IMG/VR virus record: IMGVR_UViG_641736163_000010
Direction: 5' to 3' (one strand)
Length of the DNA stretch: 39,990 bases
DNA from: a virus
Taxonomy: Duplodnaviria; Heunggongvirae; Uroviricota; Caudoviricetes
In this document: one piece after another, positions 1 to 39,990 of the stretch
How the letters are laid out: each line of letters opens with the position of its first letter
Numbering within the stretch: position 1 is the first letter of the stretch
Notes under the pieces: generated by a model
The model's input: the letters and a program-made list of their open reading frames with translations, nothing else
Told to the model about the DNA's origin: nothing
Databases searched by the model: none
Position numbers and translations under genes: made by a program

Positions 1-235
1 TCAATAAATCCCATCATTGCGATCAACCTCATCCTTAACCATTGATGCGAGCAGTTCTTCCAGTTTCTGCGCTGATAGCTTTACCTGGTGATCTTCAGCA
101 TCTTCCCGGGCTATTGTGGTTCGCGCAGTGGCTGATTTTGCTGACATCACCACAGGGGGCAGACGGACCATTGAACCATGGCCTCCGGAACAAATAAGGG
201 CAAAAATAACAACCACTATCGAAAGCTCACAAACT

Positions 236-460
236 AACCGCAGCACGTTCCTGCATACGACGTGTCTGCGGCATAATCCCAATGATTACTCCCTGACAGG
301 ATTTGCAGGCCACTCAATATCAGGTGCAGTTGATGTATCAACACGATTCAACAATACCCGATATTTATTCCATGCCTCCAGCAACGATCTTTCTTCCTCC
401 GTTGCGATTTCCAGATCTACAGCATCCTGCAGTGGCGCAATATACTCACTGAATTCCTGG
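236..460. repeat. Direct repeat copy 1 (~220 bp; tfa 3' end plus downstream hairpin)
   Basis: Near-identical to 1286-1500, including the imperfect inverted repeat ccgcagcacgt...acgtgtctgcgg and the codons for the last ~50 residues of Tfa. Confidence 0.7.
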
Positions 461-555
461 ATGTAGAACTGTGTGGTGACGGTCTTCCAGCCATTCGGCT
501 CCTGCTGTATCGAAGCATACCAGGCTATTTCAATATCGCTATGCTGCGGCAGCAT
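286..555 (-). pseudogene. Tail fiber assembly protein remnant (C-terminal ~50 residues Tfa-like, unrelated N-terminus)
   Basis: ORF translation ends ...[52 protein letters not shown], almost identical to the C-terminus of the full tfa at 1335-1919; the first ~37 residues have no Tfa similarity. Confidence 0.5.
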
Positions 556-582
556 TTAACCCCTTGTAATTCATCGCCATAA

Positions 583-611
583 TTGATTTAATTCACAAAT
601 AAAACTATAAC
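583..611 (+). promoter_or_regulatory. Candidate sigma70 promoter of the methyltransferase moron (TTGATT-17 bp-TATAAC)
   Basis: Hexamers read directly from sequence; the -10 element abuts ATG 612, suggesting a leaderless or short-leader mRNA starting near ATG 624. Confidence 0.35.
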
Positions 612-1280
612 ATGGTGAAATCAATGAAAAAAAACACAGATGATGGGGCTAAAATTTACACACCACTTACCCTAAAGCTTTATGACTGGTGGGTTTTGGG
701 AGTATCAAATCGGCTTGCATGGGGATGTCCTACAAAGGAACACCTTCTTCCACACTTTCTGGAACATGTAGGTAACAACCATCTGGATATTGGTGTTGGA
801 ACTGGGTTTTACCTTACTCACGTACCTGAGAGTAGTCTGATATCTTTAATGGATTTGAACGAAGCTAGCCTGAACGCGGCATCTACAAGGGCTGGGGAAT
901 CAAAAATTAAACATAAAATTAGCCATGATGTTTTTGAACCTTATCCCGCGGCGTTACATGGTCAATTTGATTCCATTTCCATGTTTTACCTTCTTCACTG
1001 CCTGCCTGGAAATATATCTACAAAAAGCTGTGTAATACGCAATGCGGCGCAGGCCTTAACTGACGATGGAACTCTATACGGAGCCACAATTCTTGGCGAT
1101 GGAGTTGTGCACAATAGCTTCGGTCAAAAACTGATGCGCATTTACAATCAGAAAGGCATCTTTTCAAACACAAAAGATTCCGAAGAAGGCTTAACACATA
1201 TACTCTCAGAGCATTTCGAGAATGTTAAAACCAAGGTTCATGGTACTGTAGTAATGTTTTCCGCTTCAGGGAAAAAATAG
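612..1280 (+). CDS. Class I SAM-dependent methyltransferase (moron; probable small-molecule/protein MTase rather than DNA MTase)
   Basis: Motif I HLDIGVGTGFYL (Gly-rich SAM-binding loop); AT-rich relative to neighbours; opposite strand to phage genes; TTGATT-17-TATAAC promoter-like element ending at the first ATG, so translation may start at the second ATG (624). Confidence 0.7.
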   Translation: MVKSMKKNTDDGAKIYTPLTLKLYDWWVLGVSNRLAWGCPTKEHLLPHFLEHVGNNHLDIGVGTGFYLTHVPESSLISLMDLNEASLNAASTRAGESKIKHKISHDVFEPYPAALHGQFDSISMFYLLHCLPGNISTKSCVIRNAAQALTDDGTLYGATILGDGVVHNSFGQKLMRIYNQKGIFSNTKDSEEGLTHILSEHFENVKTKVHGTVVMFSASGKK

Positions 1281-1285
1281 CATCC

Positions 1286-1500
1286 AACCGCAGCACGTTC
1301 TTGCTTAAGACGTGCTGCGGCATAATCCCAATGATTACTCCCTGACAGGGTTCGTAGGCCACTCAATATCAGGTGCAGTTGATGTATCAACACGGTTCAG
1401 CAACACCCGATACTTTTTCCAGGCTTCCAGCAATGAGGTTTCTTCCTCCGTTACAATTTCCAGATCTGCAGCATCCTGAAGCGGCGCAATATGCTCACTG
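1286..1500. repeat. Direct repeat copy 2 (~220 bp; tfa 3' end plus 11-bp-stem hairpin at ~1288-1320)
   Basis: Near-identical to 236-460; hairpin ccgcagcacgt-N11-acgtgctgcgg lies between the convergent MTase and tfa stops. Confidence 0.7.
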
Positions 1501-1919
1501 GCTACCTGCATCAGGTTGTTTTTTGTTTCTTCCGCCTCCCGGATCCGGAACAGTTTTTCTGCTTCTGCATCTTTCACCCAGGTTGTGCCGTTCCACTTCT
1601 GAAACTCCCCTTCCGGCGATAACCAGGTAACATTTTCCGGTAATAAGCCGAGTTCAGAAATAAATAACGCGTCGCCGGAAGCTACGTCATAAACCGTTTT
1701 ACCCCGATGATCTTCAACGAGATGCCACGATGCCTCATCACTGTTGAAAACAGCCACAAAGCCAGCCGGAATATCTGGCGGTGCAATATCGGTACTGTTT
1801 GCTGGCAGACCTGTATGAGGCGGAATATATGCGTCACCTTCACCAATAAATTCATTAGTTCCGGCCAGCAGATTATAAATTTTTATGGTCCGTGCTTGTT
1901 CACTCATTCTGAATGCCAT
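1335..1919 (-). CDS. tfa: Tail fiber assembly protein Tfa
   Basis: 194 aa; [44 protein letters not shown]... is near-identical to lambda Tfa; start overlaps the stf stop (TAATG). Confidence 0.93.
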
Positions 1920-4900
1920 TATGCAAGCCTCACAATATAGTTAAATGCGATGTTTTTGACGGTGTTTTCCGCGTTACCCGCAGCGTTAACGGTGATGGTG
2001 TGTCCATGTGAACCAATCGCAACGGAGTGCGTATGCGCACCAATACCTACAGTATGTGCATGTGCGCCAGAACTTGCTGCAGTACCAGACAGCGAGTGGG
2101 TATGAGCACCTGCTGACTGTGTCTGAATACGTTGATAATACGATCTATAGGAAGAAGTCCCCGGGCTTACTTGATACTGTGAATTCTGGACATAAGTGAA
2201 CCCACCGCCATCATAAAATGCTAACGCAGAACCGCCGCCTCCTGGCCAACGAATACCATTACCATGAGTATGAACACCGGCAGACCCCGTAGAGCCACTC
2301 AGACTGTGCGTATGCGCCCCGGTGTTATTCGTGGATTTAGTGCCGTAATCAAACGACGATGTGGTTTTCGTCCCCAAATCCGTACTGGATGCGCTGGCGC
2401 TGTGGGTATGCGATTTAATGCCGTCCTGTTCCTGAGACAATACGGCCCGACCACTGGCAGGTTTGCCCTTAATCGTCCAGCCACGCATATCAGGGATCAC
2501 GCCTGACGGATAAGCGGCTGCAAGTTTCGGGTAGGCAGATTTGTTAAAAGTCTGCCCCTGCATCAGGGCATAACCAGACGGAACGGTATCTGATGGCCAC
2601 GGGATTGGTGCGCCAACTGGGTAGCTTTCTGGTGGAAGATTTTTCGAGGTATAAACTTCTGCCCAGTCTTCCTCAAAACCATAACCGTCTCTTGAAGAAC
2701 GGTAGAACAGACCACGATTTCTGTAATGCGCCTTCATCTGCAGGGTCCGGCAACTTCCGACTCCGGTATAGAAGTTAACCAGAATATAGCTGTCGCCAGA
2801 GCGGGTGACATTGTAAGCGCCTGATTCGGCATTCCAGGGAACGGCTCCATCCGAATCCGCATAAGCCCCCGTCGAACGTCGGGCAAATGCACCAATATTT
2901 TCCGACGTGAGGTTAATATCCGCCGAGCCATCAAACTTAACACCGTTAATTTTTGGGGCTGCCGCAAGTTTCGTCGCGGTATCGGCGTTCCCCTTCAGTG
3001 CCCCGGTGATCCCATCAGTAACAGACAACGGACCTGAAATAGTCCCTCCAGTCGTTGGCAGCGCTCCAATATCTGATGGTGTAGGTTTCTGATGTGAGCT
3101 ATACATCGTATAAACAACACCACCGGTAACGCTGGAAGGCTTACTCGCTGAATATGTTGGCGAGGTATAAATAGAAACTGACGCATTTGTAGTACAATCC
3201 CAATGGATATTTACACTCGTCGCATAATTGCCAATCTCAACGTAAATATCATATGTATCGCCGGATGTGTTGATCCAGGCGAAATTCGTTAATCCGACGG
3301 CTGTACGCTTCCACAAAGCTCCGGTAATCCCTTTGGGCTTTCCATTGCCTGCTCGTAGAACCAGTTCTGAAATGCCTGCCTGCTGTGGGGAGCCGACGTT
3401 GTAACCAGCGCCACCAATCAATGTGATGTAAACGATGGAACTCGCTTGTGGCATGGTAACCGTTGCCAGTTTGAACCACCCTGCCCCGCCAGAGAAAGAG
3501 ATCGTTACTGAATTTAAAGTGCCAATATCTTTCGGTGTTAATGTTATATCCGCAGTCAGTGCTTTCCCGTTAACTTTTCGGTTAGATGGTACCCTGCCAT
3601 TCGCATTGTCATTCGCTGCTTTAACTGCCTTCGGTGTCGCGGCAAGCGTTTCAGATGTGCTGTTGGTCGCACTGCTGAGCTGTACTATCCCCTTTTTCGT
3701 CGTACTTGCATCCTCAAGCGCCACGGCGGATGCAATATCCTCTGCCCGTTTTGCCGCTGTCTCGGCGCGCGTTGCCGCGGATTCCGCCGTACTTTTGCTC
3801 TGTGCTGCCGCCGTCGCACTGCCAGCTGCCTCTGTCGCCTTCGTGGATGCTGTCGTGGCGCTGCCCTTCGCTGCTGACGCCTGTCTGGTCGCCTCATCTT
3901 TTGAAGCTGACGCCGATGATGCCGATGACGCCGCCGAACTGGCGGACGATGCGGCAGCCGTTTTTGAGGATTCTGCGCTGGTTTCCGACGCTTTCGCGTT
4001 CGTCTCGGATGTCTTCGCTGCGGAAGCAGACCTTGCTGCTGCACTGGCCTGTTCAGTGGCTTTGCCAGCCTTCGTTGTGGCTGTTGAAGCGGATGATGCG
4101 GCGCTTTCTGCCGATTTTCCGGCGGCGGTGGCACTGGCTGAGGCCTGCCCGGCACTTGTTGACGCGGCACTGGCAGATGATGCAGCCGCTGTTTTTGAGC
4201 CTGCCGCAGCTGAGGCACTCTGTCCCGCTGCCGTTTCAGAAGACCTGGCGTTCGTCTCGGACGTCTTTGCCGCCTTCGCGGAATTTCCTGCCGCCGTTGC
4301 CGAGGAAGCTGCACTACTGGCACTTGATGATGCATTCGTTTCTGAAGATTTCGCTGCCTCTTTTGAGGCCGCCGCACCCCGTGCCGAGGTGGCAGCTTCT
4401 GACGCCTTCGTGGTCGCTGTGGATGCAGAAGTGGCTGCCGATTTTTGTGATGCTGCGGCATTCGTTTCTGACGTTTTCGCGGCACTGGCGCTGGTAGCTG
4501 CCGCGCTTTTTGATGACTCTGCAGCAGCAGCACTTTTTGCTGCTTCACGGGCCTTTGTCGATGCCGTTCCTGCGCTGGAAGACGCTGACTGAGCCGACGA
4601 CGCGGCCTGTCCGGCTGACGTGCTGGCGGCACGTGCTGAGGCTGCAGCATCGGTTGCATGAGTTACCGCCTCGCTGGCTGATGCACTGGCATCGCTGGCT
4701 GATTTTTTCGCGGCTGCCGTATTCTGTGCAACCGCGGAGGCGTTACGTGACACTTCTTCCACCATCTGCTCAAAGCGGCGCAGTGCCTCCGGTCGGACAT
4801 CATCCTCCGTCATGGCACCGAGAAAATCATTCAGCGTACCTGGTCTGGAACCTTCATAGACGGTAATGGTCCCGGCATGTGAAGGCGGAAAACCTTCAAC

Positions 4901-5089
4901 CAGCAGGGTGACGCTGTACTGACCATGCTCAACATCCATGCTGTAACGTCCGGCTTCATCCGGATTTTCAGAGGCCACCGTGTTCACCACCACCGTGCTG
5001 CTGGTTCGTCTGGCCTTCAGCACAATGGTGCAGTTCTGTACTGGTTTTCCTGTGCCATCTTTAAGCACGCCAGAAATTTTTACTGTCAT
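1919..5089 (-). CDS. stf: Side tail fiber protein Stf (long Ala/Ser/Thr-rich central region; His-rich HxH C-terminal domain)
   Basis: N-terminus [60 protein letters not shown] matches lambda Stf; C-terminal GAHTHSLSG...[13 protein letters not shown] repeats typical of tail-fibre tips. Confidence 0.92.
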
Positions 5090-5100
5090 ACTTTTCCACC

Positions 5101-5135
5101 AATAAAAAAAGCCCGCAGCAGTGACGCCACGGGCT
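5101..5135 (-). terminator. Rho-independent terminator downstream of lom
   Basis: Minus-strand hairpin AGCCCG-N14-CGGGCT followed by T7 (plus-strand aataaaaaaa gcccg...cgggct). Confidence 0.5.
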
Positions 5136-5240
5136 TCAGGACAGTGTAACTTTACGTTTCCTCAAACGCAGTTCACCCCATAAGGTGGATGAACCTGCGT
5201 ATCATAACAATATTTACAGAAGATAAATCGGCGTCTGTTG

Positions 5241-5840
5241 TCAGAAACGGTATCCGATACCAACAATAAATGCATCCGATCGCCAGTCGCCACTACCGGA
5301 ACCTTCATAAGCAAGGTCAATGGTCACGGATTCGGTCGGGTTAAACTGCACGCCAGCCCCCCACGCCAGAGACGTGTTGCTGTGGCGACCGTCATCACTT
5401 CCGGTCAGCACATCGTGCGTTTTCCCCTTGTTGTCAGTTACGCGGAGATAATCCCCGGAGAAAGTCGACACACGGCTGTAAGCCACACCCGCCATCGAAT
5501 ACGCGCTGAACCATTCATTCACGCGTACAGACGGCCCCGCCATCACGCTGAACCAGCGGTTACGCACGGAATCTTCATGCCAGCGGGTATCGCTGTAGCG
5601 CGTTTTTTGCTCATCCTCAGCATTGGCATAACTGAAGGACGTAATCAGCCCCAGCGCGTCCGTAAACTCATAACGGTATTTCACGTTAATCCCGTTCAGA
5701 TCATCACTACCGGGAACGTTCGTCGAGGCATGGAGATACCCCGCGCTCAGCGTGGACTGATGTTCTGCTGCACTCGCTGGCGTAGCAGCGGCGACCTGCC
5801 AGACTACTGCGGACAAAATAACAGCACATAATTTACGCAT
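5241..5840 (-). CDS. lom: Outer membrane protein Lom (Ail/Lom family beta-barrel)
   Basis: 199 aa with signal peptide; ...GINVKYRYEFTD...WFSVMAGPSV...AYEGSGSGDWRSDAFIVGIGYRF matches lambda Lom including the C-terminal GYxF. Confidence 0.92.
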   Translation of the reverse strand: MRKLCAVILSAVVWQVAAATPASAAEHQSTLSAGYLHASTNVPGSDDLNGINVKYRYEFTDALGLITSFSYANAEDEQKTRYSDTRWHEDSVRNRWFSVMAGPSVRVNEWFSAYSMAGVAYSRVSTFSGDYLRVTDNKGKTHDVLTGSDDGRHSNTSLAWGAGVQFNPTESVTIDLAYEGSGSGDWRSDAFIVGIGYRF

Positions 5841-5860
5841 AATTACCTCTCGCTTTTCTG

Positions 5861-5890
5861 CAATAAAAAAGGCGCCATTTCTGGCGCCCG
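5861..5890 (-). terminator. Rho-independent terminator downstream of J (tJ-like)
   Basis: Minus-strand hairpin GGCGCC-agaaat-GGCGCC followed by TTTTTTATT. Confidence 0.55.
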
Positions 5891-5907
5891 TATCTGGGTT
5901 ATAAAAT

Positions 5908-8900
5908 TCAGCTAATCGTGATGCCTGCAGTGGCTTTCTTCATCACCACAACCAGCAAATCGCTGATACTTGCTGTGGGATACCAGTTATTTACCAGCCA
6001 TGCTGACACCGAAAACTCCAGTGTCATGTGACCGTGACCGGCAGGCATATCAATAACACCACTGTAAATCAGCGTATTATCCAGCGCAGTACGGTTATAA
6101 ATTTCAGCACCGTTTTTCCGCACTATCAGACGGCATGAGGAGTAAATATCAGTATGCTCTTTCTCATGTTTAGCGCCGCTGAATGCCACCGCCGGAATAA
6201 CAATCTGCCGGTCAAACGGCTGATCGTCATAAACCCTGACGGTAATGGTTCCTGATGGCCACCGCTCCGGTGCACGGGAGTCCCGGGGGAAAGCTTTGCC
6301 CACTGTTTTAACGAGATCGCCTTCAATCTGGTTCGCGGACAATTTTCCCAGAACCCGACAGTTCTCGTTAATCGTGACGTTGTTGAGCGTCCCGGAGTTC
6401 GCATTCACGTTACCGCTGATATCGGCATTTTTCGCCGTCAGCCGCCCGTCCGGTGTCAGGGAAAATGCCGGAGGATTACCGCCGCTGGTAATGGTGGGAG
6501 CCGTCAGATATTTCAGGAACACTTCATTCATAAATATCTGATCGCCCTGACCAACAAACATCGGCTTTGTGTTGCCATTCGCAGGATTAATCATCGCAAT
6601 CCTGTCTGCCGCCAGCAGCACCTGACTCTGCATTCCTGCTGGCGTATTCTCAATACCGGCACCGATACCCGCAATATAAAGGCGTCCGTCCTGCATCTGC
6701 TGCAGTTTCACGGCCCACATGCTGTTCAGGTTATTATTTGTATCAACCTGAACTTTCTGTATCTGCTGGATTGCCGCACTCTGATTTTCCAGTTTTTTAT
6801 TGACGGTCTGCGTGATTTCATTGCTGACATTCGTAATGGACGTCCTGATTTCAGCCAGGTCCGGCGCAAGCTGACCGTTATCAATCTGCGTCCACAGCTC
6901 CTGGGCCAGATGTGTTTTCCCGATTTCTCCTTTGAAAAAATCCAGGTAACCTTCCGCATCATCGCTCGCCCGACCGACAGCCTCCACGAATGCCGATTTG
7001 CCAACAGTATTCACACTGCGGATATAAAAATAATAATCATGGCCCGGTTTGATATTGATACTGGCAGCTATCCAGTACAGCGCCGAGCCAAGATAGCGGG
7101 CTGCGGTTTCAACCTGCCTGATATCCGCAATCCGCTTTTCCGTGAACCAGAACTCAAACTGTACCGTCGGGTCATAAACGGCAAGATGCGGCGTGGCGGT
7201 TATCTGAAAATAGCCCGGCGTCAGCTCAATCCGCGACGGTGCTGCCGGTGCGGCAATCCGGAAGGTGGTGGTGGCAGGTTCACCCTGCTGGCCATAGCTG
7301 TTTATCGCCCGCACAGTCAGGGTGTATTCCCCGAGCGGCAGGCCGCTGAAACGGTGCTCCGTGTCTGCGGTGATGGCGGTGGTCACCAGTCTGGCATCCG
7401 TTCCCTTACCACTGGTCAGGCGCAGACTGAAGCGCACACCCTTCACCACCCGCGGCGTGTCCCATTTCGCCTGCGCCAGATACTGGCCGTCAGCTGCGCT
7501 CACCTCCACCGTCAGGTGCTGCACTGCCGGTGGGATGACGCTGTTCAGGGAACCTGACTGCGGCTCAAAGCGGGCACAGTTATCCACGATGGCTTCTTTT
7601 TCCGGTACGTGCTGCACCGCCGTGATGGCAAAGGTGCCGTCCGTGTTTTCCCGGACGGAGACACAGCGGAACAGGCGACGGCGCAGTGACGGCAGGGAGA
7701 GTCCCCACACCCCGTATGTCTCCACACCATCAGGCAGGGTACTGACCTGTATCCGGTCCGGCGCGGGGTGTTCGGTGATGTCCACACTCACTGGCTTACC
7801 GCTGCCGTTAATCAGGTTCACCGTGGCGGCACCGGTCTCCGGAAGTGTCACTTCACGGTCCAGCGTCAGGGTGCGGGTGGCAGCATCAATGGACAGGACA
7901 CGTCCGCCGGTCAGGGTCCCGGCATAGTCGTTATCACAGATTTCAATGATGTCACCGGGTGTGTGCCGCAGCCCCTGAGACCCGAGCGTGAAATCCACCG
8001 TCTGCGTTTCCAGCAGTTCGGTCTTTATCACCCACAGTCCGGCACGGTGGGCCTGACCGCGGCTGGTACAGCCGAACGCGTCCATCTTCAGCAGGTTGCG
8101 TCCGTAGCGCAGTATGGCTTCCGGGTCTTCCACCAGTTCCGTGGAGGTCTGCCAGCCGTTCTGCGGGTCGGTGTAATTCACCTCCACCGCCGTGTGCCGG
8201 TCCTTCAGGGCACTGAAGCTGTAGCGGAATCCCACGCCGTTATCATCCACCACCACATCGCTGTTGGTGTACGGCCACACCACATCCGACGGGCGGTCCT
8301 GCACGAACGTCAGCGTCTGACCGTTCCATACCGGCATACAGCGCATCGCAGAGCAGAAATCACTGAGAACGTCCCACGCCTTACGCTGTTGTGCCAGGTA
8401 CGCATTAAAGGTCATCCGCGGCTCGGTCCCCCCGAAACCATCCGGGACCGTCTGATCGCAGTACTGCCCGATGGCATACAGCGCCCACTTGTCCACATCC
8501 GCCGCCCCCAGACGTTTTCCCATGCCGTAGCGCGGGTGAGTCAGCATGTCCCACAGGCACCAGGCCGGGTTGTTGCTGTATGCCGGTTTCAGACTGCCGT
8601 CCCAGATACCACTGTACGTGCGTTTTTCCGGGTCATAGTTTGACGGCACCTGGATGATACGACCGCGGATATGGTAGTTCACCGTCATCTGCTGGCCGCC
8701 GAACTGCTCCGCATCCACCTGCAGCCCCACAATGGCCGTGTTCGGGTAGCACTGTTTCACATCGATGATTTCGGTGTATGACGACCACAGCGTCTTATTC
8801 TGCAGCTGGTCCGTGGTGCTGTCCGCCGTCTCCCTGACCATCCGGATGTTAAAGGGCCGGGGAGGCAGATTATCCAGAATCACCGAGGCCAGGAACTGTG

Positions 8901-24644: not shown

Positions 24645-25163
24645 TTATTCAGTTGTTGCTCTGATATATTCATCCAGCAAATCCGGTAATTTATCCCCTG
24701 CCCGCGCACACTGATTTGCGCCCTTTGCAATAAGGGTTTTCAGATGGTCAATATGACGTGGCGTTAAATCCGGGAACTGTCGCTGCATGGATAACGGAAT
24801 GGAATCAAGCGTACTGGACAATGCCATCGCCAGTTTGCTGAGGGCGAAAACGCAGAAGTCTGAATCGATGAGCTTACCTTCGGTTACCTGATTTTTAAGT
24901 TTTTGAGCTACAGCCTGTTCTTCTGTCAGTTCAGCTCTGGCCCGAAGCAGCCTTTCCTCCAGTTCTCCCCCGTCATCAGGTGTTCTCTGATTGTGTTGTC
25001 GCCGCTCGCGATCTATCTCCAGTACAGTTTTAACGTCATATAAAACTTCCCTCCCCCGACGTTCAACAGGAGGAACGCCCCATTTATCAAATGCTTGAAC
25101 AGAGATACCGATGGAGGAGGCCATATCACTTTTATTCAATAAAAAAGGCCATCTCCTCTCCAT
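24645..25163 (-). CDS. nu1: Terminase small subunit Nu1
   Basis: 172 aa; ...EVLYD... and C-terminal half (...EEQAVAQKLKNQ...DSDFCVFALSKLAMALSSTLDSIPLSMQRQFPDLTPRHIDHLKTLIAKG...) align with lambda gpNu1; sits immediately downstream of cos; exact start uncertain (weak SD). Confidence 0.82.
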   Translation of the reverse strand: MERRWPFLLNKSDMASSIGISVQAFDKWGVPPVERRGREVLYDVKTVLEIDRERRQHNQRTPDDGGELEERLLRARAELTEEQAVAQKLKNQVTEGKLIDSDFCVFALSKLAMALSSTLDSIPLSMQRQFPDLTPRHIDHLKTLIAKGANQCARAGDKLPDLLDEYIRATTE

Positions 25164-25603: not shown

Positions 25604-26671
25604 ATGAGTCAACATCAATATTATCCACAGCTGAAATGGAAGCCTGCTGAATATGAATCTCTGATGCTTTTAGATCAAACTACGCTCTCTGGTTTTACTC
25701 CGATCATTACCATTCCAGACATAGACTGGGATTATGAAAACGAATGCTACAAGAAGAGTTTGAGTTCTTACTTATCTGACTTCGGTATTAACCTTGCGGC
25801 ATCCTGGAAAGCCAATCGTCCTGTTTTGCTGGATGTTAAATATTTAGATAAACATGGTTCGAGCCGCCATCATCCTCTAGATATGTGTATCCAAGATGCT
25901 AGAGTAAATGGTAAGGAAATTATCCCTGTTGTTTCTCCCGCATATTCAACAAACTATATACATGCTGTTCAACGCAACTTAATCAATGGGCTCGCTATAT
26001 CTATCACCCCCCAGACATGGCACCAATTCACAAGTCTGGTTAACCACTTAAATATTCATCCTAGTTTAATTGATGTAATCATTGATTTTGGAGATATTCA
26101 AAACGCAACTGATAGTTTAAAACAACAAGCATTAAGCATGGTCAACACATTATCAGGCCAAGCTCCGTGGAGAAACTTGATTTTATCTTCAACCGCATAC
26201 CCGGCATCACAGGCAGGGATACCGCAACATCAAGTTCATCATATTCCGCGCCATGAATACGATCTTTGGATGTACGTAGTACAGAATTTTAGCAATGGAA
26301 GAACGCCAAGTTTTAGTGATTATCCCACCGCTAGCTCTACCATTACGAGCGTAGACCCACGCTTCATGTCTCAGTATGTCTCAGTGAGATATTCGAACGA
26401 TACCTCATGGATCTTTGTAAAAGGTACCGCAGTTAAAGGAAATGGATGGGGCCAAACTAAAAACTTATGTACTACCCTTGTTAGTTCGCCAGAGTATCAA
26501 GTCTTTGGCTCCAAATTTAGTTGGGGGGATGATTACATTTACCAAAGATCATTAGGCGCTAACAAATCTGGCGGCTCTAAAGAATGGCGTAAAGTTGCAC
26601 ATACGCACCATATTACGTTAGTCGTGAGACAGCTTTATTGGTTGGCGCAGACTCAGCCTGCCAAGCCTTAA
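25604..26671 (+). CDS. Hypothetical 355-aa protein of AT-rich moron cassette (possibly Beta-protein/sce7725-like; unverified)
   Basis: Long ORF with strong AAGGAG SD; AT-rich codon usage unlike flanking phage genes; opposite strand to the late operon; N-terminal YYPQLKWKPAEYESL; no catalytic motif I can name. Confidence 0.8.
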   Translation: MSQHQYYPQLKWKPAEYESLMLLDQTTLSGFTPIITIPDIDWDYENECYKKSLSSYLSDFGINLAASWKANRPVLLDVKYLDKHGSSRHHPLDMCIQDARVNGKEIIPVVSPAYSTNYIHAVQRNLINGLAISITPQTWHQFTSLVNHLNIHPSLIDVIIDFGDIQNATDSLKQQALSMVNTLSGQAPWRNLILSSTAYPASQAGIPQHQVHHIPRHEYDLWMYVVQNFSNGRTPSFSDYPTASSTITSVDPRFMSQYVSVRYSNDTSWIFVKGTAVKGNGWGQTKNLCTTLVSSPEYQVFGSKFSWGDDYIYQRSLGANKSGGSKEWRKVAHTHHITLVVRQLYWLAQTQPAKP

Positions 26672-27233
26672 CTTTCCAGCCTACGCGTTTCTTTAAGGCT
26701 GTTCTGACTTCAGGCCTGAGATTCGCTATTGGAATATTTTCCGCAATAATATTCCATAACTCAAATCGGGGCTTGCTTTTGATTCCTTTGGAATAGCCCC
26801 ATCGTTCAAGTACGTCGATACATTCATCTTTCCAAAGCAATTGAGCGAGCATCAATGTGTCATGGTTTCGATTAAGCTTTTCTCCACGCATGTGCTTTAT
26901 AAGAATGGCGCCTTTTGGCCCAACAGAAACCGTTTTAACGCCCCACCAACCTGGGATTAACTTTAATGCTCCCTCAAGGTGTTTCTCAGCTACGACAAGA
27001 GTAACCTTGTCCATTACAGAAGAATAATGCTTGATTTGAAGAGGCAAACGCTCCAAAGAGTCATATTCACTTTTGAGCTCGTACCCGTGTATAACACCAT
27101 TTATTACAGCAATGTCTGCTCTACTGGCGCCAAGGGATATGGAAAATTCATCGACCACAAGGCAGTCTGGATCTAAATGCGATTCTTTCAAAAGCTTATG
27201 ATGCACCGCGAACCTAACATCTTGATCTTTCAT
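26613..27233 (-). CDS. Hypothetical 206-aa protein with PD-(D/E)xK-like nuclease motif (possibly sce7726-like; unverified)
   Basis: AAGGAG SD 5 nt upstream of ATG; consensus TATAAT ~30 nt upstream; sequence ...VVDEFSISLGASRADIAVINGVIHGYELKSEYD... fits D-x(n)-E-x-K spacing of restriction-endonuclease-fold nucleases; 3' end overlaps the 355-aa gene by 59 nt (convergent). Confidence 0.8.
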   Translation of the reverse strand: MKDQDVRFAVHHKLLKESHLDPDCLVVDEFSISLGASRADIAVINGVIHGYELKSEYDSLERLPLQIKHYSSVMDKVTLVVAEKHLEGALKLIPGWWGVKTVSVGPKGAILIKHMRGEKLNRNHDTLMLAQLLWKDECIDVLERWGYSKGIKSKPRFELWNIIAENIPIANLRPEVRTALKKRVGWKVKAWQAESAPTNKAVSRLT

Positions 27234-39324: not shown

Positions 39325-39990
39325 TCAACAAGATGTATGGGTCCACCACATATTGCAATTTTTATTCTCTTTTAAAATATATTCCACGGGCGTCATTAGT
39401 GCGAGCGCCTTGTGGGGTCTTTTGCTGTTATACAGCACCAGATATTCCGCCAGCTTCTGGTTAAATAGCGCCAGATCTTCAAAGAGTAAAATCTCATTAA
39501 ATTCAATAAACTGCTCTCTTAACGTCCGGTTAAAACGTTCACAGATAGCGTTCATTTTTGGCGTGTAGGGATAGGTCCAGAGGTGTTTGATAGCGGCTTC
39601 CTGCAGCGTTTTGTCGAAGTTTCCCAGGAACTCTTTTCCATTATCTGTGATTATCTGGCTGATACCGACCGGGAACAACCGGGCTGCGCGGCTGAAGAAG
39701 TGATTGACGATATCACTGTTGAGTGACGGCACAGCCAGCGCCAGCGCGTAATTGCTGCATTCGTCGATCATGGTGATGACATAGCGACGCAGTTCGCCCA
39801 TTCTGAGCTCAATGGCGTCCATCCCAATGAGCTCACCTGTCTTTACCGGGCGGGAGTGCTTTGGCCTGCGGGGTTTGGCAGACCGCTTTTTGACAAGCAG
39901 TGCCTTCCCCCGCGATCCCAGACGCACAGGTATCATCCGCATTTTATCATGTGCGGCAGCGATCATTCTGCCGATGGTGGAAACACTCGG
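39325..39990 (-). mobile_element. IS element transposase, DDE/rve integrase-core type (IS481-family-like), truncated by the window edge
   Basis: ...QIITDNGKEFLG...YTPKMNAICERFNRTLREQ...YNSKRPHKALALMTPVEY are hallmark integrase-core motifs; reading frame stays open upstream to position 39990. Confidence 0.7.

Follow-up and report, generated by a model that had tools for sequence, protein, structure and literature searches.

An intact tfaD-ybcY-tfaX cassette in a lambdoid prophage, with tfa 3' ends as probable homology arms of a methyltransferase gene

Close to the start of the window, which is the whole stretch of 39,990 nucleotides analysed here (IMG/VR record IMGVR_UViG_641736163_000010), lies a region that by its sequence is an intact copy of the long-annotated tfaD-ybcY-tfaX cassette, an arrangement that is common and catalogued and therefore not new. 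The explanation that we consider probable is that of a ybcY cassette in which the tfa 3' ends act as homology arms. The cargo would be a self-contained unit (583-1280) encoding a 218-aa stand-alone class I SAM-dependent methyltransferase (MTase) of the small-molecule or lipid type, and it would lie antisense to the late operon, just past the tfa terminator hairpin. The direct repeat around it would represent two tfa 3'-end alleles with their hairpin, one belonging to the working tfa and one to the stump of a second tfa (tfaX). Recombination in these conserved tfa ends would re-join the near-invariant MTase core to varied tail-fibre modules on one side and to varied prophage ends on the other, either appY-ompT or a DUF4376 remnant with attR. 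The features of the locus are:

1-189, minus strand: tail-fibre / DUF4376 remnant at the outer prophage edge, running past the window start (PHROG 7703 and 1141, tail fiber protein)
236-462, minus strand: left direct-repeat copy, with a tfa-type hairpin (238-271) and the final 59 codons of a tfa allele
286-555, minus strand: tfaX (ylcE) orthologue, an 89-aa ORF with the Tfa C-terminal domain only and 31 unrelated N-terminal residues
463-582, no strand assigned: cassette-specific segment comprising the 5' part of the 89-aa ORF and part of the divergent spacer
583-611, plus strand: predicted sigma-70 promoter of the MTase (TTGATT-17-TATAAC, read from the sequence)
624-1280, plus strand: intact ybcY-type class I SAM-dependent methyltransferase, 218 aa (222 aa from the RefSeq start, ATG 612)
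1286-1511, minus strand: right direct-repeat copy, with a hairpin (1288-1320) and the 3' end of the full tfa
1335-1919, minus strand: full tfa (tail fibre assembly), 194 aa, orthologue of K-12 tfaD (Caudo_TAP 1.4e-43; PHROG 105)
1919-5089, minus strand: side tail fibre gene stf, 1056 aa, from the ORF list, upstream of tfa in the late operon

The original prediction had placed an AT-rich MTase gene between a full tfa and a truncated tfa copy, and this is how the genes are arranged: the MTase is a 222-aa ORF (612-1280) containing HLDIGVGTGF, with ATG 624 rather than ATG 612 as its likely start. The GC content is 38-45% across the MTase region (501-1300), compared with 0.47-0.55 for tfa/stf 5' and 0.50 for the left flank (about 47-52% for the flanks). 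Further information on the surroundings came from E. coli 55989, where a tfa remnant, a tail-fibre/DUF4376 remnant and an attachment-site ompW fragment lie outside the MTase. The RefSeq annotation of this strain lists a DUF4376 pseudogene (orthologous to 1-189), followed by the ompW fragment and yciE, and calls the stf orthologue 'prophage tail fiber N-terminal domain-containing protein'. In the PHROG profile search, PHROG 7703 and 1141 match the remnant with residues from 1-147.

Positions 309-1773 of the window are collinear with tfaD-ybcY-tfaX (b0561-b0563) of the K-12 prophage DLP12, with 96.7% DNA identity. Gene order and orientation are the same, and so are the promoter hexamers of the ybcY/tfaX spacer. 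Differences concern the MTase gene itself and the outer flank. The K-12 ybcY is a pseudogene, whereas the ORF is intact here; the loss of G626 and A627 in K-12 removes the start codon at 624. Next to the cassette, K-12 has appY-ompT. Here, by contrast, tfaX carries a different allele of the 3' end from 377 outward, and this end is followed by its own hairpin, the DUF4376 remnant and then the prophage end at ompW, the latter taken from the near-identical locus of E. coli 55989.

The cassette is widespread. MTase DNA is present in 3836 of 5426 complete E. coli genomes, with at most four copies each and about 4900 cassette copies in total, and the full 2-kb arrangement in 1113 of these 5426. The MTase is also carried by 14 complete phage genomes, including the isolated or induced phages ev243, 2G7b, Kati, Turner and the PhiR series. 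An identical protein is already on record as YbcY, a name used by the annotator of PhiR68_2 as well. The whole arrangement is inherited as a block and is neither novel nor a local event. Its prevalence in E. coli may largely mirror vertical inheritance of the old DLP12 remnant and not a selected benefit.

Evidence for recombination in the flanks came from a comparison of core and flanks with six relatives. The MTase core is near-identical in all of them (1-8 of 698 positions differ, at most 1.1%), whereas the flanks derived from tfa jump from one allele to another at sharply defined points. In Kati, PhiR68_2, K-12 and APEC, the tfaX repeat shows 19-20 differences in 154 positions, all of them within 316-376; in the right tfa repeat of ev243, 14 of 121 positions differ, clustered at 1409-1453. 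The cassette breakpoints vary with the relative (309, 331 or 1 on the left; 1320, 1432, 1455 or beyond on the right), and the cassettes of Kati and PhiR68_2 stop precisely at the hairpin foot, position 1320. A near-invariant core with switching flanks is consistent with homologous recombination having occurred repeatedly in the conserved 3' end of tfa. The involvement of the tfa terminus in recombination, as proposed originally, is therefore retained, but not the acquisition of the cargo as a local event, since the whole block is inherited. Downstream of tfa in lambdoid prophages the same cassette recurs, but in strain O177:H21 the same tfa and hairpin are followed by other cargo (a reverse transcriptase and SLATT).

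It is possible, albeit rather unlikely, that a second, alternative tail-fibre module, for instance half of a Pin-invertible or tandem stf-tfa set, has decayed to the tfa remnant and the DUF4376 fragment, and that the MTase is a passenger that arrived in these remains. The repeat would then go back to an ancestor with two fibres and not to the capture of cargo by recombination. Kati and PhiR68_2 have ynaE and the pin invertase after tfa and its hairpin, between the MTase and the full tfa, the cassette of strain 1447 adjoins a pin fragment and an inverted stf'/tfa' pair, and in the window a tail-fibre/DUF4376 fragment is located just outside tfaX. However, both tfa ends are direct and not inverted, and no invertase gene is found between stf and the window start. 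A Pin/Gin/Cin-type invertible segment would have inverted repeats around alternative fibre and tfa ends and a serine invertase next to them, and the sole inverted repeat here is a 15-nt pair at chance level. On its own, a second module leaves the allele switches in the flanks unexplained; it does fit the explanation by tfa ends as homology arms as an earlier step.

The direct repeats of about 220 bp that had been reported to bracket the MTase are present on realignment and extend over 227 nt (236-462 and 1286-1511) with 88% identity, including the strong hairpin; their inner ends had originally been placed about 10-20 nt too short. The repeat search returned two stretches, 266-462 against 1315-1511 (197 nt, 88%) and 236-264 against 1286-1314 (29 nt, 90%), with an indel of 1 nt between them, and blastn a single match of 227 nt (236-462 against the orthologue of 1286-1511, 88.5%, E 5e-79). 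In the MAFFT alignment the left edge is sharp at 236/1286, and similarity decays beyond 462/1511. The two hairpins (238-271 and 1288-1320) fold with -25 to -30 kcal/mol, with z scores of -2.8 to -5.1 against shuffled sequences. The hairpin of the left copy has a U-rich tail on the minus strand and was flagged as terminator-like. On the MTase strand there is no U-tract at the hairpin, which is thus not a canonical terminator for the MTase.

The hairpin belongs to the normal tfa module. This became visible in a search with an artificial empty site, consisting of window positions 1-462 joined to 1512-2000, in which single-piece matches begin at 211 or 236. Since this search bridges pieces across a 1-kb gap, carriers of the cassette dominated the ranking, and no single-piece match spanning 1-951 was found among the matches listed.

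The two copies of the repeat differ from each other by 12%, with dS 0.43, dN 0.10 and dN/dS 0.23, and because of this divergence they represent two old tfa alleles that evolved separately. This speaks against a reading of the repeat as a duplication of the tfa 3' end caused by insertion. A duplication in situ, arising when the MTase DNA entered tfa or its vicinity in the lineage of this prophage, would be in line with the direct orientation of a repeat that brackets the cargo and with its sharp edge at the hairpin foot (236/1286), but we regard it as very unlikely. The dN/dS value indicates divergence under selection in functional tfa alleles, whereas the MTase differs by at most 1.1% among cassettes, and the left copy itself switches allele between cassettes (19 differences within 316-376). 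Furthermore, no transposase-type mechanism is known to generate target duplications of 227 nt.

Both repeat copies also match the Rfam family IS009 (RF02111) on the tfa strand, with 221 bits at 1378-1576 and a sub-threshold 112.5 bits at 329-532. IS009 was left out of one ncRNA analysis together with other Rfam families because ribosome footprints were expected (PMC5331693). The match here lies inside the tfa coding sequence; the preferable reading is that it reflects the conserved 3' coding region of tfa and does not point to an sRNA in this place.

The 89-aa ORF is collinear with K-12 tfaX (b0563). It matches the Caudo_TAP profile at positions 75-130 only (6e-25) and PHROG 2341, a family of 88 aa annotated as of unknown function, over the full length. 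Its ATG (555) is preceded by a plausible Shine-Dalgarno sequence, AAGGGG, 4 nt upstream; RefSeq calls the orthologue in E. coli 55989 a pseudogene. In the literature, tfaX was found in expression or screen tables only. In the phage collection searched, the segment 463-582 occurs only in the 14 complete genomes that carry the MTase and in the deletion derivative Ayreon, which has lost precisely 586-1244.

The MTase shows the hallmarks of class I SAM-dependent methyltransferases, with the GxGxG loop of motif I, a strand 2 that ends in an acidic residue, and a Rossmann-like fold of seven strands. The search for the nearest characterised family, suggested originally, was carried out with profiles and returned generic families only: Pfam matches were confined to Methyltransf_12, 23, 25 and 11, and no NCBIfam model came near its cut-off (18 bits against 180). 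PHROG 2132, a prophage SAM-MTase family of unknown function, matched at 3e-156 over 218 of 218 positions. The invariant N-terminal cap, YDWWVL...N..AW.C.T, is matched by no named Pfam or NCBIfam model. The family has 62 invariant columns in 21 sequences and a dN/dS of 0.09-0.11; a value of about 0.1 indicates purifying selection.

A profile search of the PDB listed juvenile-hormone-acid MTase (JHAMT) first (1.7e-5) and UbiG next. The nearest sequence relatives with a solved structure are thus O-methyltransferases of the juvenile-hormone-acid and UbiG types. Compared with small-molecule class I MTases of the Methyltransf_11/12/25 clan (JHAMT, UbiG, phosphoethanolamine MTases and phosphatidylethanolamine N-MTases), YbcY shows 12-21% identity in a flat ranking that singles out no family. 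A bacterial phospholipid N-methyltransferase of the PmtA type, the top Foldseek hit (8ys9), was rejected, with neither membership at the sequence level nor a structural match that clearly stands out. Neither the fold nor the profile searches lead beyond generic methyltransferases of the small-molecule or lipid type. We infer a small molecule as substrate, and our guess for the chemistry would be an O- or N-methylation that acts on a common metabolite of hydrophobic or amphipathic character. The mentions of ybcY found in the literature do not address its function.

In Gamma- and Betaproteobacteria, homologues that share 50-70% identity occur on the chromosome as stand-alone genes, without phage genes in their vicinity (Salmonella, Enterobacter, Erwinia, Yersinia, Pseudomonas, Dyella and others). 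Their surroundings are genus-specific: DUF6388-MTase-enoyl-CoA hydratase-CorA in Pseudomonas, a PMT_2 glycosyltransferase upstream of the MTase in Salmonella, and liv genes and DUF4156 near the MTase in Enterobacter. Beyond such genus-level synteny, 80 loci across species revealed no conserved operon partner, and no pathway can thus be deduced for the MTase. The idea of fatty-acid methyl esters, based on the enoyl-CoA hydratase neighbour and the similarity to JHAMT, was considered too thin. DNA similarity to the Salmonella and Enterobacter loci covers 583-1279 only; it begins at 583/584, and these loci lack 463-582. From predicted promoter to stop codon, 583-1280 forms the mobile gene unit.

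A role in nucleic acid methylation or in (anti-)defence, with the MTase as a self-protection or defence moron at a tail-fibre hot spot, might be suggested by the reverse transcriptase and SLATT found at the cargo site downstream of tfa in another prophage, but is highly improbable. The absence of a DNA-MTase target-recognition signature, noted originally, is borne out by the generic small-molecule Pfam families and by the missing motif: no Pfam DNA-methylase family matches, and the translated MTase contains neither the catalytic (D/N/S)PP(Y/F/W) motif nor the PCQ motif of N6A, N4C and C5 DNA methyltransferases. In addition, a protein of 218 aa is too short to include a target-recognition domain, and PADLOC-DB gave no significant match to a defence system (mad2, E 0.0094, 12.8 bits). 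The prophage has a genuine N6_N4 DNA methylase of its own at 32990-34039 (N6_N4_Mtase 2e-44), and the chromosomal homologues are single genes without partners.

That the MTase is a chromosomal housekeeping enzyme beside the prophage end can be dismissed as extremely improbable: although its homologues are stand-alone chromosomal genes, here it lies within the prophage (with tfaX, the DUF4376 remnant and the ompW att fragment further out), it is packaged in the isolated or induced phages listed above, and there are up to four per genome. Internal position and carriage by 14 phage genomes exclude this origin at the locus, and the MTase is a prophage-borne moron as originally proposed. It is present in some and absent from other close phages at the same spot (lambda is matched at the tfa 3' end and hairpin but lacks the MTase), and its base composition deviates. 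Morons of lambdoid phages, in the sense of Hendrix and Juhala, include lom and bor. Like these and other cargo loci downstream of tail-fibre genes, ybcY is an extra gene outside the essential late operon that deviates in composition, has its own predicted promoter and is flanked by a hairpin. In contrast to them, it is antisense to the late operon and bracketed by two tfa 3' ends instead of occupying a simple gap between genes, and its product is a cytoplasmic enzyme instead of an envelope protein.

The MTase would be transcribed in the lysogen from its own sigma-70 promoter, and such a promoter would make it independent of lytic late transcription. Shimada et al. (2014) reported a genomic SELEX peak for the RpoD holoenzyme and a predicted ybcY promoter in the K-12 ybcY/tfaX spacer, together with an H-NS flag (PMC3946193). 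RNA polymerase holoenzyme thus binds the orthologous K-12 spacer in vitro, the SELEX peak being of low resolution. The sequence at 583-611 is the same in K-12 and in the window, without a single difference, and has the hexamers of the promoter predicted for K-12. An automated promoter scan prefers another site, TTAACC-16-CATAAT at 556-583, and with the predicted promoter at 583-611 the 5' UTR upstream of ATG 624 would be as short as about 6 nt. H-NS would probably damp the promoter.

Tentatively, YbcY might serve lysogenic conversion by methylating a common lipid of the envelope or else a metabolite that is fatty-acid-like or used in signalling, as would suit its nearest relatives (JHAMT, UbiG, phospholipid MTases), with the paired tfa ends serving as portable homology arms that spread one near-invariant allele among unrelated lambdoid tail modules; as a secondary element, the 89-aa TfaX (the Tfa C-terminal domain, with ATG and Shine-Dalgarno sequence) might be made in lytic growth and modulate fibre assembly. 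We consider this extended proposal unlikely.

The practical result is the right label for the region, an intact ybcY between tfa (tfaD-type) and tfaX. The locus illustrates the use of conserved gene ends, here the Tfa C-terminal domain with its hairpin, as recombination joints that reshuffle lambdoid cargo, and the ybcY family reaches, with at least 50% identity, from E. coli phages to Pseudomonas and Dyella. Neither the wide family nor the joints at the tfa end will surprise a phage specialist. If the proposed conversion is true, YbcY would alter host physiology or phage susceptibility. About 70% of complete E. coli genomes contain ybcY, and a function assigned to it would have very broad relevance.

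The locus with the methyltransferase (MTase) gene forms the right-hand end of a lambdoid prophage, and sequence as well as synteny identify it as a member of the ybcY/tfaX cassette. This arrangement of a tail fibre assembly gene (tfa), the MTase gene and a tfa remnant is already known, since the record of E. coli K-12 annotates it, as do thousands of RefSeq genomes and phage records. The window contains the following features at this end:

286-555, minus strand: tfa remnant ORF, 89 aa, whose match to Caudo_TAP is confined to the C-terminal portion (positions 75-130, E 6e-25)
612-1280, plus strand: MTase ORF, 222 aa, with the motif HLDIGVGTGF
1335-1919, minus strand: tfa, 194 aa, matching Caudo_TAP positions 1-130 (E 1.4e-43)
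1919-5089, minus strand: side tail fibre gene stf, 1056 aa, preceding tfa on the same strand
238-271 and 1288-1320: hairpins of the left and right repeat copy (folding energies −25 to −30 kcal/mol; z-scores relative to shuffled sequences −2.8 to −5.1)

ORFs and Caudo_TAP matches thus agree with the original prediction that the MTase gene sits between the full tfa and a truncated copy of its C-terminal region. The gene was also described as AT-rich, and the GC content of the MTase region (0.38-0.45) is indeed below that of the surroundings. The predicted direct repeats of about 220 bp bracketing the MTase were upheld on realignment (236-462 and 1286-1511). A repeat search returned two pairs (266-462 versus 1315-1511, 197 nt, 88%; 236-264 versus 1286-1314, 29 nt, 90%), which blastn joins into a single match of 227 nt (88.5%, E 5e-79). 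Each copy consists of the hairpin and the final 59 tfa codons; in an explicit alignment the outer edge is sharp at 236/1286, and similarity fades beyond 462/1511.

In E. coli 55989 a DUF4376 pseudogene adjoins the outer side of the matching 6 kb (99.2% identity), then come an ompW fragment and yciE-trp; lom and J lie on the inner side. The cryptic prophage DLP12 of K-12 carries the same genes as tfaD (b0561), ybcY (b0562, a pseudogene on the opposite strand) and tfaX (b0563), collinear with window positions 309-1773 at 96.7%; appY and ompT come next after tfaX. While ybcY is intact in the window, the K-12 MG1655 gene has lost G626 and A627 (window numbering) in the start codon/poly-A run (ATGAAAAAAAAC to ATAAAAAAAC) and is dead, since this loss removes ATG 624. 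The exact MTase protein of the window has already been recorded as YbcY, a name also used by the annotator of phage PhiR68_2. The MTase and the 89-aa ORF match PHROG 2132 and PHROG 2341 over their full lengths, both labelled 'unknown function'. Of 5426 complete E. coli genomes, 3836 contain the MTase DNA (556-1285) at ≥95% identity, some as many as four times, and 1113 contain the entire 2-kb arrangement. Among phages, the gene is present in 14 complete genomes, such as those of ev243, 2G7b, Kati, Turner and the PhiR series; one further matching record is a partial fragment of 1.7 kb.

Cassette boundaries were compared between the window and eight other loci.

Extent shared with the window (window coordinates)
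Kati and PhiR68_2: 309-1320, ending at the hairpin foot; beyond it ynaE and pin (an invertase), with a full tfa after them
ev243: 331-1455; beyond it another tail module
Strain 1447: 1-1432; beyond it a fragment of pin, with stf'/tfa' as an inverted pair
K-12 DLP12: 309-1773; appY-ompT on the left
APEC_AN-25: 309-2106; appY-ompT on the left
Phage Ayreon (MF807953, 4001-4349): 469-585 fused to 1245-1480, with 586-1244 precisely deleted
Salmonella (79% aa identity) and Enterobacter (68%) homologues: 583/584 to 1276/1279 only, without phage cassette flanks

The mobile gene unit is 583-1280, beginning with the −35 hexamer of its predicted promoter and ending with the stop codon, because the similarity of the Salmonella and Enterobacter loci is restricted to this part. 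The 120 nt at 463-582 (codons 1-31 of the 89-aa ORF and part of the spacer) are found only together with the cassette. Ayreon is a natural ybcY-null phage: its scar retains the last 36 nt of the MTase gene, the hairpin and a tfa fragment, and the MTase is lost. The hairpin belongs to the tfa module, since lambda tfa (orf-194) matches the repeat, hairpin included, at 84%. E. coli O177:H21 (locus L013, 2063-3962) has a 93%-identical tfa and hairpin, followed at the same position by a SLATT-domain gene and a reverse-transcriptase gene, making the spot downstream of tfa a cargo hot spot. This defence-like pair is followed by DinI, an integrase and dusA. The MTase gene is a moron, as its presence or absence among relatives and its deviating base composition show; of the further attributes of moron cargo, its own promoter is only predicted and the hairpin lacks a U-tract on the MTase strand.

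The original prediction described the repeats as duplicating the tfa 3' end. A fresh duplication, made on insertion, is not supported, given the divergence of the copies over the 59 shared codons (dS 0.43, dN 0.10) and the abrupt allele changes in the flanks; the divergence arose in two functional tfa alleles. Promoter and MTase differ at 1-8 of 698 positions among six relatives. On the left flank, 19 differences crowd in 316-376 (Kati, K-12, APEC) and near identity begins at 377; on the right flank ev243 is identical up to 1408 and has 14 differences crowded in 1409-1453. One core set between tfa-derived mosaics that switch allele within tfa homology bears the mark of repeated homologous recombination or gene conversion inside the conserved Tfa C-terminal coding region. 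The proposed cargo acquisition by recombination at the tfa end is therefore supported in general terms, although this prophage is not the only one in which it is seen. The locus is not an invertible segment.

The divergent ORFs are separated by 56 nt, which hold TTGATT-17-TATAAC (583-611), without differences in K-12. The K-12 ybcY/tfaX spacer gave an RpoD-holoenzyme genomic SELEX peak, and the ybcY promoter predicted there has the same hexamers, with H-NS flagged (Shimada et al. 2014, PMC3946193). The position is not settled, as a promoter scan ranked TTAACC-16-CATAAT (556-583) first. With TATAAC as the −10 element, the transcript could not include ATG 612; since homologues in a 21-sequence alignment also begin at the counterpart of ATG 624, the protein most likely has 218 aa, and the leader would be very short. 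With no U-tract in the hairpin 3' of the stop codon, MTase transcripts may extend antisense into tfa. The 89-aa ORF, a pseudogene in RefSeq, has AAGGGG 4 nt upstream of its ATG.

Rfam IS009 (RF02111) matches 1378-1576 (minus strand, 221 bits, gathering score 117) and, slightly below the gathering score, 329-532 (minus strand, 112.5 bits). Both matches fall on the repeat copies; this 'RNA family' is probably a coding-sequence artefact here and not an sRNA, because it coincides with the conserved tfa 3' coding region. The tfa hairpin region (1289-1351, minus strand) gives a weak partial match to CssrB (Shigella sRNA B; 32.6 bits, gathering score 76, E 2.7e-4). The 45-aa RefSeq 'hypothetical protein' WP_001309429.1 (1225-1362, minus strand) extends from the 3' end of the MTase gene across the hairpin to the stop codon of tfa and is in all likelihood a false prediction. 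An Ala/Ser-rich stretch of stf (3435-4659; GC 0.57-0.64, strong AT skew) produces spurious long ORFs (385, 324 and 263 aa) in other frames or on the other strand.

Elsewhere in the window we found:

25604-26671, plus strand: 355-aa ORF with a full-length Pfam 'Beta_protein' match (PF14350, E 8e-56), opposite in strand to its neighbours 24645-25163 and 26613-27233 (both minus); it may be a further moron
29379-31250, minus strand: DUF1737, SASA (sialate O-acetylesterase) and DUF6645 protein
31857-32045 and 32321-32514, minus strand: two copies of sRNA STnc100
32779-32940, minus strand: tRNA-Arg(tcg) and tRNA-Met
32990-34039, minus strand: genuine N6_N4 DNA methylase (2e-44); the Q antiterminator gene (34614-35435) lies upstream of it
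39325-39966, minus strand: IS3-type transposase with rve domains, at the window's far end

The layout of 29379-32940 resembles the late region of Stx-type lambdoid prophages with their NanS-p-type esterase.

Unlike the separate N6_N4 methylase, the ybcY-type MTase has no DNA-MTase family match or motif and no space for a target-recognition domain, so that the absence of a DNA-MTase target-recognition signature noted originally is confirmed. Nor is it recognised as a defence protein (no significant PADLOC match). The profile search proposed for its nearest family returned only generic small-molecule Pfam families (Methyltransf_12 at 4e-9, then _23, _25 and _11), no NCBIfam model close to its cut-off and, in the PDB, juvenile-hormone-acid MTase (JHAMT, 1.7e-5) before UbiG. 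The confident AF2 model (pLDDT 91.2, pTM 0.88) has a Rossmann MTase fold with an N-terminal helical cap, and fold and motif together point to a class I SAM MTase. The family alignment has 62 invariant columns, including the cap (Y-D-W-W-V-L…N..A-W.C.T), motif I (D.G.GTG), D77-x-N79, H101-D102 and D116-S-x-S-x-x-Y-L-x-H-C-L. In Foldseek the best hit was a phosphatidylethanolamine N-MTase (1.3e-11, TM about 0.65); JHAMT, phosphoethanolamine MTases and NodS came next. A phospholipid N-MTase identity is not demonstrable; the assignment to which we commit is solely 'small-molecule or lipid O-/N-methyltransferase'.

Stand-alone chromosomal homologues (50-70% identity) occur in Salmonella, Enterobacter, Klebsiella, Yersinia, Erwinia, Pantoea, Proteus, Pasteurellaceae, Pseudomonas, Xanthomonadales and Oxalobacteraceae. 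Their neighbourhoods differ, with no conserved partner gene beyond genus-level synteny; one Enterobacter homologue has a P2-type tail fibre and tfa in its vicinity. In 16-18 Pseudomonas genomes (loci L054-L093, about 4660-7560) DUF6388, MTase, enoyl-CoA hydratase and CorA follow in order, an arrangement that does not go beyond genus-level synteny; having enoyl-CoA hydratase as a neighbour hints faintly at acyl or fatty-acid chemistry. The dN/dS values between the window MTase and its Salmonella, Citrobacter and Enterobacter orthologues are 0.09-0.11. This constraint and the spread of the homologues mark the family as a real, constrained enzyme with a widespread target.
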